In this document: positions 1 to 4,064 of the stretch, in pieces
Layout: each line of letters begins with the position of its first letter
Numbering within the stretch: the first letter of the stretch is position 1
Made by a program: the position numbers and the translations under genes
The notes under the pieces: model-generated
The model's input: only the letters and a program-made list of their open reading frames with translations
What the model was told of the DNA's origin: nothing
The model's database searches: none
IMG/VR virus record: IMGVR_UViG_2778261179_000007
Coordinates: 1-4,163 of that record
Length of the DNA stretch: 4,163 bases
Reading direction: 5' to 3' (one strand)
Source: a virus
Lineage: Duplodnaviria > Heunggongvirae > Uroviricota > Caudoviricetes

Positions 1-1760
1 GCCTCATTGCGTCGCTTTTTGCTGTCCCACAGTATTTTTTTCCTGCCATCCACCCATTTTTCGACCTGCTCTTCAGCAGTCAGCTGCTGCGCTTCGGTCA
101 GATCAAAAATATCCGGGTTATTCGGGAAGTGAACGGCACCGGGAAGCGGTTCATCCCCTTCCGGCGTCAGTGTGAAGCGGTTATAAATCTGCTCTTTCGC
201 GGTATCCGTACCGATTTCGGTAAGGTAAACCCCGTTTTTGTTTCGCTTACGTGGCATGCTGGCCACCGGCTTTCCGTAGACGGATGCCCCTTTAATGGGG
301 ATCACCCGGAACAGCCCATGTTTTTTCGAGCGTTCATACACAATGGTCGGGTCAATCCCGCCAGTATCCCAGCAGATACGGGATATCGACATTTCTGCAC
401 CATTCCGGCGGGTATAGGTTTTATTGATGGCCTCATCCACACGCAGCAGCGTCTGTTCATCGTCGTGGCGGCCCATAATAATCTGCCGGTCAATCAGCCA
501 GCTTTCCTCACCCGGCCCCCATCCCCATACGCGCATTTCGTAGCGGTCCAGCTGGGAGTCGATACCGGCGGTCAGGTAAGCCACACGGTCAGGAACGGGC
601 GCTGAATAATGCTCTTTCCGCTCTGCCATCACTTCAGCATCCGGACGTTCGCCAATTTTCGCCTCCCACGTCTCACCGAGCGTGGTGTTTACGAAGGTTT
701 TACGTTTTCCCGTATCCCCTTTCGTTTTCATCCAGTCTTTGACAATCTGCACCCAGGTGGTGAACGGGCTGTACGCTGTCCAGATGTGAAAGGTCACACT
801 GTCCGGCGGCTCAATCTCTTCACCGGATGACGAAAACCAGAGAATGCCATCACGGGTCCAGATCCCGGTCTTTTCGCAGATATAACGGGCATCAGTGAAG
901 TCCAGCTCCTGCTGGCGGATGACGCAGGCATTATGCTCGCAGAGATAAAACACGCTGGAGGGGTCATCCGGCGTCCATTTGAGGCCAAACGGCGTCTCTT
1001 TGTCGCCAAATTTAAGATACTGCTCCTCCCCGCAGTGCGGGCAGGCAACATGAAAACGCATAAAATGCGGGGATTCACTGGCTGCACGCTCAATCTGGCA
1101 GGTGCCTCTCACTTTGGGCGTGGAGCCACGGATGGACTTTGGCCAGACCGAGCCTTCAATACGCTTGTCGCCCAGGAACGTCGGAGAGCCTTCCTGTTCA
1201 ATATCCTCATCAAAGGCAGCAAGTTCATCATAACCCGCCACATCCACCGACTTTTCACGGTAGTTTTTTGCCGCTTTACCGCCCAGGCACCAGAAGCCAC
1301 GACCATTGGTGAAACGCTTCATGGTGAGCGTGTTATCCCGGTGCTTTTTGCCATACCACGGGGCCAGCGCCAGCAGCGACGGAATATCACGAATAGTCGG
1401 CTCAACGTGGGTTTTCATGAAGTTCTCGGCATCACCATCCGTCGGCAACCAGATAAGGGTGTTACGCTGTTTATGCTCTATGAAGTAGGCATAAACACCC
1501 AGCAGCATTTTGGAATAACCGACACGGGCAGACTTCACCACATTCACCTCACGGATGTAGTCGCTGCCCATCGCATTCATGATGGCCCGCTGAAAGGGCA
1601 GTGTTTCCCAGCGCCCTTCCTGGTATGCGGATTCTTTCGGGAGATAGTAATTAGCATCCGCCCATTCAACGGCGGTCTGTGGCTCCGGCCTGAACAGGGC
1701 ACGAAGCCCGGCGCGGACAAAATGCCGCAGCCTGTCAACCTGACTGTTCGATATATTCAC
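1..1760 (-). CDS. A: Terminase large subunit (lambda gpA-like), N-terminal ~586 codons; C-terminal end runs off the window at position 1
   Basis: Reverse-complement translation from GTG (complement of 1758-1760) reads MNISNSQVDRLRHFVRAGLRALFRPEPQTAVEWADANYYLPKESAYQEGRWETLPFQRAIMNAMGSDYIREVNVVKSARVGYSKMLLGVYAYFIEHKQRNTLIWLPT..., matching the lambda gpA N-terminus as I recall it. The first ~340 nt of the window, reverse-complemented, also match the distal part of lambda A. The ORF track lists no minus-strand ORF in this frame, which is expected for a reading frame that exits the window. The GTG start overlaps the end of Nu1 by 26 nt, as in lambda. Confidence 0.93.
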   Translation of the reverse strand, partial: MNISNSQVDRLRHFVRAGLRALFRPEPQTAVEWADANYYLPKESAYQEGRWETLPFQRAIMNAMGSDYIREVNVVKSARVGYSKMLLGVYAYFIEHKQRNTLIWLPTDGDAENFMKTHVEPTIRDIPSLLALAPWYGKKHRDNTLTMKRFTNGRGFWCLGGKAAKNYREKSVDVAGYDELAAFDEDIEQEGSPTFLGDKRIEGSVWPKSIRGSTPKVRGTCQIERAASESPHFMRFHVACPHCGEEQYLKFGDKETPFGLKWTPDDPSSVFYLCEHNACVIRQQELDFTDARYICEKTGIWTRDGILWFSSSGEEIEPPDSVTFHIWTAYSPFTTWVQIVKDWMKTKGDTGKRKTFVNTTLGETWEAKIGERPDAEVMAERKEHYSAPVPDRVAYLTAGIDSQLDRYEMRVWGWGPGEESWLIDRQIIMGRHDDEQTLLRVDEAINKTYTRRNGAEMSISRICWDTGGIDPTIVYERSKKHGLFRVIPIKGASVYGKPVASMPRKRNKNGVYLTEIGTDTAKEQIYNRFTLTPEGDEPLPGAVHFPNNPDIFDLTEAQQLTAEEQVEKWVDGRKKILWDSKKRRNE

Positions 1761-2280
1761 TCAGCAACCCCGGTATCAGTTCATCCAGCGCGGCTGCTTT
1801 GTTCATGGCTTTGATGATATCCCGTTTCAGGAAATCAATATGCCGGTTATCCAGCTCAGGAAAACGTCGCTGCACCGACAGAGGAATACCGTCGAGAATA
1901 CTGGATATTTCCCTTGCTATACGCGACAGCACGAAAGTACAGAATGCGGTTTCCACCACTTCAGCCGATTCTTTGGCATTTTTCAGTTCCTGCGCCGTCG
2001 CCTGAGCACGAGTCAGGCGATGGCGCTCAAATTCAAGTGTTCCTGGGTGAAGATCTGCCTCGCTGGCCTGCCGCAGTTCTTCAACTTCCCGGCGCAGCTT
2101 TTCGTTCTCAATTTCAGCATCCCTTTCGGCATACCATTTTATGACGGCGGCAGAGTCATAAAGCACCTCATTACCCTTGCCACCGCCTCGCAGAACGGGC
2201 ATTCCCTGTTCCTGCCAGTTCTGAATGGTACGGATACTCGCACCGAAAATGTCAGCCAGCTGCTTTTTGTTGACTTCCAT
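1735..2280 (-). CDS. nu1: Terminase small subunit (lambda Nu1-like), 181 aa, N-terminal winged helix-turn-helix that binds the cosB R elements
   Basis: ORF-track protein MEVNKKQLADIFGASIRTIQNWQEQGMPVLRGGGKGNEVLYDSAAVIKWYAERDAEIENEKLRREVEELRQ... is near-identical to lambda Nu1 as recalled, with a handful of conservative substitutions. Length matches (181 aa). It sits immediately downstream of cosB, as in lambda. Confidence 0.95.
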   Translation of the reverse strand: MEVNKKQLADIFGASIRTIQNWQEQGMPVLRGGGKGNEVLYDSAAVIKWYAERDAEIENEKLRREVEELRQASEADLHPGTLEFERHRLTRAQATAQELKNAKESAEVVETAFCTFVLSRIAREISSILDGIPLSVQRRFPELDNRHIDFLKRDIIKAMNKAAALDELIPGLLSEYIEQSG

Positions 2281-2419: not shown

Positions 2420-2457
2420 TTAAACCGGAAAATTTTCATAAATAGCGAAAACCCGCG

Positions 2458-2469
2458 CGCCTTCCGCCC
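2458..2469 (-). other. cosN: cosN cohesive-end 12-mer; minus-strand sequence GGGCGGAAGGCG (lambda: GGGCGGCGACCT)
   Basis: Plus strand 2458-2469 is cgccttccgccc, whose reverse complement is GGGCGGAAGGCG. Both flanks (..CTACG on one side, CGCGGGTTTTCGC on the other) align to lambda. Five of the six positions in the 3' half of the 12-mer differ from lambda as I recall it. Confidence 0.7.
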
Positions 2470-2758
2470 CGTAGCCTGCCGGATCGCCGGAAAGGACCCG
2501 CAAAGGTGAGAATAATTATCACTTGCATTAATATCCGGCTTCTTCCACCATCGCACCGGACGGGCGACTATGAGGGACAAAATCGCGCACCATAAACGCG
2601 GTAAAAACCCGGTGTGCATCGTTTTTGATTATTCCCGCACACTCGCGCAGAAGGAGTTCCCCGTCGGGCTACGGTCATGGTTAATGCGGAAATACGGCGA
2701 CGATGCAGCGCGGTATTTAATGTGCGACCACGGTCGCAAACGAGAAACAAAGAGATTT

Positions 2759-3070
2759 TTATGCTACAGAGGAACAAGCTGGCGGGTAATTCAGCGTAGT
2801 GAATACCTGCATCTCCATCTTGTATGCGTAATGATACTCAGCAGTTGCTCCAGCAGACGCTTTCCAGCCAGGAAGCATCAAAATAGCATCAGCACAACGA
2901 AGCATTGCAAAGCAAATATCCATGTATTCACGTTGTGTCAGACCATTAGGCAAAGTGGCTGGATTCAAGACAGAGTGACCATGTCGTGACAAACGATCTG
3001 CCTCTTTATTAAAGGCGTCACGATTAAAGTTCTCATATCCCGTCATTGGCCCGGCAATATAAATTTTCAT
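2759..3070 (-). CDS. Small (103 aa) nucleoside 2-deoxyribosyltransferase-like protein (DUF4406-type); accessory gene between Rz and cos
   Basis: ORF-track protein MKIYIAGPMTGYENFNRDAFNKEADRLSRHGHSVLNPATLPNGLTQREYMDICFAMLRCADAILMLPGWKASAGATAEYHYAYKMEMQVFTTLNYPPACSSVA. The N-terminal KIYIAGP loop and the C-terminal block AILMLPGW..SAGATAEYHYA resemble the N-terminal loop and the catalytic-Glu motif (here Glu78) of nucleoside 2-deoxyribosyltransferase / Rcl-type enzymes as I recall them. Same strand as the late genes, with a weak Shine-Dalgarno (GGATAGTGA before ATG). GC content is about 45% in four of its five 60-nt blocks that I counted, against about 58-62% in two 60-nt blocks sampled from A. 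The family assignment is from memory, not a search. Confidence 0.65.
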   Translation of the reverse strand: MKIYIAGPMTGYENFNRDAFNKEADRLSRHGHSVLNPATLPNGLTQREYMDICFAMLRCADAILMLPGWKASAGATAEYHYAYKMEMQVFTTLNYPPACSSVA

Positions 3071-3111: not shown

Positions 3112-3570
3112 TTAATTCAGGCATTGCGTCTTGATGTATTCCTGCAAGTAGTTAACCTGCGCAGTTATCCTGTCGATCCCACTTCGGAGACGGTAATAAT
3201 TGAGTTCAGCATCTGCTGTAAGTCTTGGGCTTTCTCCATTGCCCATGCCGCTGGCTCCGGTCGTTGACTTTGCACAGGTGGCGGCGACTTGCAGGCGCTT
3301 ACGGCCAGCGGCAACATCAGCGCGCAGAGTTTCATTTTCAGCTTTCGCATTGGCTAATTCTCTCGAGTACTTTGCATCGAGCGCAGCAACATCACGCTGA
3401 CGCTGCTGCATGTCAGCGATGGTGGCGATCGCCTTCTCCAGTTCACTGGCCTTGTTATCGCGCTGCTCCTTGTAGGCGATTGCGTTATCACGGTAATGAT
3501 TAACAGCCAATGACAGGCAGACGATGATGCAGATAACCAGAGCGGAGATAATCGCGGTTACTCTGCTCAT
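3112..3570 (-). CDS. Rz: Rz, inner-membrane spanin subunit (i-spanin), 152 aa
   Basis: Translation [93 protein letters not shown]... matches lambda Rz as recalled, with an N-terminal transmembrane helix and a coiled-coil periplasmic domain. I place the start at the ATG (complement of 3568-3570) that overlaps the R stop as ATGA, not at the upstream GTG (3582) used by the ORF track. Confidence 0.9.
3165..3350 (-). CDS. Rz1: Rz1, outer-membrane lipoprotein spanin subunit (o-spanin), embedded in the +1 frame of Rz
   Basis: 61-aa [64 protein letters not shown]. It has a signal peptide with lipobox (..AVSA|C, Cys20) followed by a proline-rich mature region, and lies entirely inside Rz in another frame. 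This is the classic lambda Rz/Rz1 arrangement and the sequence pattern is similar to lambda Rz1. Confidence 0.85.
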
Positions 3571-4064
3571 TGTTGCCCCCACAAACAGACTTCACGCTCA
3601 ATCTCACGACGAGTCATCAGGCCTTTCCATTGCTTACCGCCAGCGTATATCCAGCGACGTAGCTGGTCACATGCGCCTTTAATATCGCCCTGGTTTATTT
3701 TGCGAAGAAGCGTCGATGTTCTGAAATTGCCAGCACCCACGTTGTAGACGAACGAGTAAAGAGCGCCGCGCGTTGTTTCCGGTATATCGACTTTGATGTA
3801 CGGGTTAATTTGTCTGGCAACCGTGGCAAGGTCTTTATTCAGGAGGGCTTTGCATTCTGCTTTGGTATACGTTTTACCGAGCATGATGTCTTTTCCGGTG
3901 TGTCCGTGACATACAGTCCATACGCCAACGATATCTTTGTATGGTACGTAGCTGACACCTTCCAGACCATCGTTACCACTTGGGCCAGTGATTAACACAG
4001 ATGCTATGGCAATAGCCCCGCCACCAATAGCAGCAGCAACGGCTTTTCGTAATGATGGAGGCAT
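3567..4064 (-). CDS. R: SAR endolysin (phage 21 R-type lysozyme, T4-lysozyme-like glycosidase family), 165 aa
   Basis: Translation [61 protein letters not shown]... is essentially the phage 21 endolysin as I recall it. It has a Gly/Ala-rich N-terminal signal-anchor-release helix and the catalytic triad E35-D44-T50. A GAGGTG Shine-Dalgarno precedes the ATG, and the start overlaps the holin stop (TAATG). Confidence 0.95.

Follow-up and report, generated by a model that had tools for sequence, protein, structure and literature searches.

The closest described system for the locus analysed here is the cohesive-end site (cos) of phage lambda with its terminase, made up of the small subunit TerS (Nu1) and the large subunit TerL (gpA). 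TerS bound at R3 anchors TerL, and the terminase measures its cut from R3 (Feiss et al., 2015, PMC4669245; PMC9026076), at a distance given as 47 +/- 2 bp (Higgins and Becker, 1994, as cited in Feiss et al., 2015). The nicking site cosN is read unevenly. As cited in Feiss et al. (2015), mutations in base pairs (bp) 7-12 have minimal effect, whereas symmetric mutations in the left half are severe (Xu and Feiss, 1991); G2C cuts the yield about tenfold, C11G is without phenotype (Xu and Feiss, 1991), and this left/right asymmetry is cosB-dependent (Hang et al., 2001). With lambda TerL, the burst is the same for the cosN of lambda and that of N15 (Feiss et al., 2015). Natural sites conserve cosQ and the CG pair at each nick, and their variation follows the right-half pattern (Feiss et al., 2015). 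Several natural variants illustrate this pattern. N15 and phiD326 carry GGGCGGCGTCCG, which we confirmed in the N15 sequence and which departs from lambda at bp 9 and 12 while left half and CG flanks are kept; Gifsy-1 varies at bp 8, 9 and 11 (Feiss et al., 2015), and the mEp213/LLS sequence, published later as GGGCGGCGCGCT, likewise varies within bp 7-12. The published mutational data concern single or few changes, and a test of five simultaneous right-half changes was not found in our literature search. A study by Vahanian and colleagues from 2017 (Virology 509:140) reportedly deals with natural right-half variation and the natural history of cosN.

We describe here a cos site in which five of the six right-half positions are changed at once. 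The window, which is the whole stretch of DNA analysed (4,163 nucleotides), very probably contains, as judged from its sequence, a functional cohesive-end site of the lambda type (cosQ-cosN-cosB, Nu1 and A) in which the 12-nt sequence is a natural allele. It represents a lambda-like late region on the minus strand, in the order R, Rz/Rz1, a DUF4406 gene, cos, Nu1 and A. The endolysin gene R lies at 3567-4064 and Rz at 3112-3582. A 61-aa open reading frame at 3165-3350 (minus strand), in the +1 frame within Rz and with a lipoprotein-type signal (…LPLAVSAC…), has the usual layout of an embedded Rz1 o-spanin. The interval between lysis cassette and cos holds the DUF4406 gene (2759-3070, minus strand, 103 aa; Pfam E 2.5e-34). 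Here the window differs from lambda, which has bor/lambdap78-79 and a different lysis-to-cos interval, and resembles N15, in which a DUF4406 gene (gene 57) lies near the right end. Directly upstream of cosQ, on the opposite strand, is a small open reading frame (2570-2746, plus strand; MRDKIAHHKRGKNPVCIVFDYSRTLAQKEF...) that corresponds to a 58-aa 'hypothetical protein' of Escherichia phage PhiR46_1; in the window it extends to 139 aa, and it has no Pfam match. On the other side of cos, Nu1 (1735-2280, minus strand, 181 aa) matches Pfam Phage_Nu1 with E 2e-96. The A gene (1-1760, minus strand) begins with GTG and runs off the window, so that residues 1-586 of 641 are covered; these match the Pfam families GpA_ATPase and GpA_nuclease, the latter at residues 322-586 (profile positions 2-272 of 294).

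The cos region itself, all on the minus strand, has the complete set of lambda-type elements: cosQ, CG pairs at both nicks next to GGGCGG, the R3-I1-R2-R1 spacing and adjoining Nu1 and A genes. The cosQ heptamer GGGTCCT, the packaging-termination signal, is present as an exact motif at 2493-2499, at the lambda distance from the nick (-29 to -23). The 16-bp cosN core, CG|GGGCGGAAGGCG|CG, spans 2456-2471 in an ungapped alignment to the lambda/DE3 record with annotated cos, and the predicted nicks, placed from the CG steps, which are conserved, and from the distance to R3, which is unchanged, would fall at 2470/2469 on the top strand and 2458/2457 on the bottom strand. The spacer between cosN and R3 (I2 region, 2418-2455) is lambda-like and aligns without gaps, its length unchanged. 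R3 (2402-2417), a TerS binding site with the core CGTTTCCGTTCTTCTT, has the exact lambda sequence and spacing. It is followed by the I1 region with the IHF site (2374-2390, boundaries approximate), whose sequence AATGTTTTTATTTAAAA is that of lambda in the alignment and whose label was assigned from the published R3-I1-R2-R1 order. The inverted element R2 (2346-2361) and R1 (2305-2320) match the lambda sequences AGAAAGGAAACGACAG and CTGTCGTTTCCTTTCT exactly. No insertion or deletion separates window and lambda/DE3 between cosQ and the start of Nu1.

In this setting, the minus strand from 2485 to 2440 reads ...GGCAGGCTACG|GGGCGGAAGGCG|CGCGGGTTTTCGCTATTTATG, with the 12-mer at 2458-2469. The lambda 12-mer GGGCGGCGACCT, the canonical allele that anneals with the ends of lambda, 21 and phi80, occupies the same alignment columns, and the window departs from it at five of 12 positions. 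The left half, GGGCGG (bp 1-6, 2464-2469), is that of lambda, whereas the right half (bp 7-12, 2458-2463) is AAGGCG against CGACCT in lambda, so that bp 7, 8, 9, 10 and 12 differ and C11 alone is common to both. The right flank, CGCGGGTTTTCGC, is the same as in lambda, the left flank has one difference in 5 nt (CTACG against TTACG), and 5 differences from lambda occur in the 190 bp to the right of the 12-mer. Chance is of no concern here, because this is a plain sequence difference in a site that outside the 12-mer changes is about 95% identical to lambda. A preliminary description of the window had placed a variant 12-mer with five right-half differences and a conserved left half among lambda-like flanks, cosB and Nu1, and the alignment bears this out; the lambda cosN it had given agrees with the annotated DE3/lambda cos. 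It had further counted 10 of 22 positions in twofold symmetry, built from different base pairs than in lambda. Our recount gives the same number for both sequences, though in the 16-bp core defined by the Feiss laboratory lambda has 10 symmetric positions and the window 8.

Compared with the described natural variants, the window is thus the more extreme case of a known phenomenon, with 5 of 6 right-half positions changed between flanks that are otherwise those of lambda. N15 has two changes, a different cosB in which R3 is single, and a TerL with 65% identity, whereas the window has five changes next to the cosB and TerL of lambda, and the two alleles differ from each other at bp 7-10. Gifsy-1 and mEp213/LLS have different sequences in more divergent cos and terminase contexts, unlike the window allele, whose flanks can match those of lambda-allele sites at 100% identity. 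In searchable phage papers (the 2017 study by Vahanian and colleagues lay outside this search) GGGCGGAAGGCG was not found, and its sole literature match was a chance one in a paper on Ginkgo.

The preliminary description had called the element a prophage. A lambda-type element it is, but it may be of the linear plasmid type, as its closest relatives are N15-like telomere phage-plasmids. Over its whole length the window is best matched by plasmid records of 46-48 kb, with about 96.5% identity. One relative is PhiR46_1 (PV340565.1, 1-46290; locus L223 of our survey), in which telL and telR sites, ParA/ParB and a large primase-like protein are annotated, and in which the first open reading frame has all four protelomerase Pfam domains (TelK/ResT). 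Its gene content marks PhiR46_1 as a telomere phage of the N15 kind whose packaging, head and tail genes are of the lambda type. More generally, the window is closest to linear-plasmid prophages of about 46-48 kb in which lambda-type packaging, head and tail genes (>99% gpA identity) replace those of N15, and such relatives were found in E. coli, Shigella sonnei, E. albertii and E. fergusonii. The 4.2-kb window lies outside the protelomerase, telL/telR and ParAB regions and is compatible with both a linear plasmid and an integrated prophage. The PhiR46_1 record names ECOR13 as host; a paper describing the ECOR-derived PhiR phages was not found in our literature search. From the deposition as a phage with a named host we infer that PhiR46_1 is packaged through the variant cos.

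The preliminary description had proposed to look for recurrence of the 12-mer in related cos sites. The variant does recur, yet it is the rare form. In the phage collection GGGCGGAAGGCG occurs in two records, Escherichia phage PhiR46_1 and YDC107_1, and all other lambda-like records have the lambda 12-mer. IMG/VR was searched with pattern scans anchored on the conserved flanks, which are complete for sites that lack lambda's base at bp 7 or bp 12. Two such complete scans and a direct scan for the variant place GGGCGGAAGGCG at about 83 lambda-type cos loci, whose left flanks fall into at least 8 haplotypes; the carriers are mostly contigs derived from prophages. The general scan gave at least 117 lambda-allele and at least 3 variant sites among the matches listed, and these are not unbiased frequencies, since alleles with C7 and T12 (changes at bp 8-11 only) were sampled solely among the matches listed. 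Rarer alleles are GGGCGTCAGGCG at about 12 loci, GGGCGGCAGGCG at 4, GGGCGGCAGACG at 3 and GGGCGGTGACCT at 2, together with several singletons. The left half (bp 1-6) is invariant except in about 15 of the roughly 230 cos sites surveyed. About 13 lambda-type cos loci (e.g. L212, L183, L221 and L211) have GGGCGTCAGGCG or GGGCGTCAGACG, which begin with GGGCGT and combine a change at bp 6 with right-half changes; this bp 6 change falls in the half that is reported to be under selection. A 56-kb contig, IMGVR_UViG_3300045988_113976, shows the variant cos at two loci (L138 and L142), with the matches on opposite strands within their loci; these may be one site fetched twice. A cos query of 73 bp found matches in 4151 complete E. 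coli genome records, 40 at ≥99% and 29 at 95-99% identity, bands that comprise the variant and near-variants, and 2829 at 90-95%, the band expected for the lambda allele. About 1-2% of the lambda-type cos sites in these genomes hence have the variant. Integrated chromosomal prophages whose lambda head module is complete also carry it, as do about 24 complete plasmid records (42-91 kb) of E. coli, Shigella sonnei, E. albertii and E. fergusonii. In the GTDB species-representative genomes one of 11 matches has the variant (Escherichia sp. E1V33). A donor with the 12-mer in a non-lambda cos was not found; elsewhere the 17-mer ACGGGGCGGAAGGCGCG gave about 10 unrelated, GC-rich chance matches.

Lambda-allele cos sites were also found in assemblies of unrelated organisms, namely Raphidiopsis, Aeromicrobium and Archangium (L232, L233, L234 and L235) as well as 39-49 kb 'plasmids' of Alicyclobacillus, Paenibacillus and Rahnella (H190, H192 and H193). 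At three of the four genome loci, Archangium excepted, the 15 bases left of the 12-mer match lambda. These sites are most likely lambda control or vector DNA that contaminates the assemblies.

A 12-mer this different from that of lambda could call for a gpA or Nu1 of altered specificity, in other words a new packaging specificity that arose by co-evolution of terminase and site. In the window, gpA residues 1-586 are more than 99% identical to lambda/DE3, from which they differ only by N9D, S21A and D185E, and the nuclease domain (residues 322-586) is identical. The complete gpA of PhiR46_1 likewise has three differences from lambda (N9D, S21A and T466I). Nu1 has 11 substitutions, and because all of them lie in residues 78-148 its N-terminal DNA-binding domain is that of lambda, as is cosB. 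We compared 92 full-length gpA sequences that adjoin a lambda-type cos, 47 at loci with the lambda allele and 39 at loci with the variant. None of their residues separates the two classes, and no gpA or Nu1 residue that tracks the allele was found. Residues 9 and 21 of gpA do differ weakly in frequency between the allele classes, as co-evolution would have it, but they lie in the N-terminal Nu1-interaction region, outside the nuclease, and each allele is found with either state. A divergent clade of gpA, which shares about 64-66% identity with lambda, likewise occurs with both alleles, and so does each of four gpA proteins at 100% identity, that of lambda/DE3 among them, and even one identical pair of Nu1 and gpA. 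In published data, moreover, the lambda and N15-hybrid terminases show no cosN specificity (Feiss et al., 2015). At the level of sequence, the terminase did not co-evolve with the allele, and the idea that it did is largely refuted and extremely improbable.

The five changes might also be damage that has inactivated cutting in a defective prophage, so that nothing is packaged from this site. Many E. coli lambdoid prophages are indeed cryptic, and the window by itself cannot show viability. Decay, however, would be expected to leave a spectrum of products, while one exact 12-mer is found at about 83 loci. The left half, CG flanks, cosQ, R3 and the spacing, which make up every position with a known role, are all intact, Nu1 and A are intact as well, with full-length gpA at 39 variant loci, and the allele is found in a phage deposited with its host named and in the complete phage-plasmids of four species mentioned above. 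We therefore regard a decayed site as highly improbable. A further alternative is that the nicks fall elsewhere and the 12-mer is not the true overhang, for example through a shift of register along the GCGCGCG run at the right nick. The variant does produce a brief stretch of alternating G and C where the bottom strand would be nicked (...GGCG|CGCGGG), and end mapping is absent from the phage records, with none in the phage collection beginning at the variant 12-mer, as a record with mapped ends might. Against such a shift stand the conserved CG steps, which are in place, and the R3-cosN spacing, which is unchanged while the cut is measured from R3. Nicks at other positions thus seem very unlikely.

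The reading we prefer is that of a rare, recurrent natural allele that is changed only in the half known to be tolerated, and which confirms known biology. Cutting would then proceed as in lambda. TerS (Nu1) would bind R3, R2 and R1, with IHF at I1, and TerL (gpA), anchored in this way, would nick at the conserved steps CG|G and G|CG, which lie 12 bp from each other, so that GGGCGGAAGGCG and its complement remain as 5' overhangs. Selection would act on the flanking CG pairs and on the left half of the 12-mer, both of which would be read, whereas the bottom-strand nick would be insensitive to bp 7-12 because cosB positions TerL, so that the right half could vary freely without a compensating change in the terminase. 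The right half does not seem to be entirely unconstrained, however: across the lambda-type cos loci tallied, hardly any natural allele has lost C11, yet C11G is neutral in laboratory tests. This retention suggests a weak constraint that is invisible to burst-size assays. The preliminary description had seen in the window a natural test case for how much of cosN is read by gpA. A lambda-like gpA does go together with the variant, but the question was largely answered before by the tolerance of bp 7-12 and by the cutting of the N15 site (Feiss et al., 2015), and the natural pairs described below add to that answer.

Whereas cutting would hardly be affected, the compatibility of cohesive ends between phages would be. 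Duplex stabilities from DNA nearest-neighbour parameters predict a dG of -18.6 kcal/mol for the variant with itself and -19.0 kcal/mol for lambda with itself. For lambda with the variant, where GGGCGG alone pairs, the predicted value is about -9.6 kcal/mol, and for lambda with N15 about -15.2 kcal/mol; the latter pair of ends is viable in experiments, with an about fourfold loss of yield. It is reasonable to assume that, if the nicks are as in lambda, variant ends would anneal poorly with lambda ends, at about half the predicted stability. Within one phage both virion ends would always match each other, because both derive from the same allele in the concatemer, and hence the allele would be without cost on its own.

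A near-isogenic pair bears on how such an allele comes to lie in a lambda background. PhiR46_1 and the IMG/VR contig 3300045988_154548, which has the lambda allele, show no difference between -165 and +733 (about 900 bp, counted from base 1 of the 12-mer) other than those at bp 7, 8, 9, 10 and 12, and 8 more mismatches follow in the next 2.5 kb. By a rough estimate, 13 random differences over about 3.4 kb would put 5 of them into 6 bases with p ~1e-8, and the allele difference therefore arose or moved in one block of very limited extent. A difference that looks local may also result when the conversion tract is longer but the donor has identical flanks. It would appear that the allele passes from one background to another that is otherwise the same through very local exchange, most probably when a chromosome packaged between two different cos alleles is resolved, or else by short-tract conversion. 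If the two cosN alleles that bound a packaged chromosome differ, its ends are mismatched, yet it can still cyclise, and the mismatch can survive replication to give both alleles (Feiss et al., 2015). Together these findings supply a mechanism for exchange confined to 12 nt, and we infer that it may apply to the variant allele.

As a natural confirmation, with five positions changed at once and a nearly unchanged lambda TerL, the locus would support that bp 7-10 and 12 are not read, which genetics had shown earlier; its mechanistic weight is little. There are practical consequences, since tools keyed to the canonical 12-mer miss about 1-2% of E. coli lambda-type cos sites, and cos-based vectors or oligonucleotides made for lambda sticky ends would fail on variant-allele phages. 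PhiR46_1 and its lambda-allele relatives are ready material for measuring the mismatch tolerance of cohesive-end cyclisation. Beyond this, it is a speculative idea, possible but on balance rather unlikely, that the right half of cosN acts as an exchangeable 'cohesive-end cassette' that defines compatibility groups. It may be compatible with the identical pair of about 900 bp, the many flank haplotypes and the halved heteroallelic stability. If true, alleles like GGGCGGAAGGCG would jump between genomes that are otherwise the same, through packaging across two different cos alleles and resolution of the 12-nt heteroduplex, and the five-mismatch incompatibility with the lambda allele, which is the majority form, would penalise recombinants and hetero-concatemers and partly isolate lineages. 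This would explain why these phages have a few discrete cosN alleles instead of a neutral cloud.
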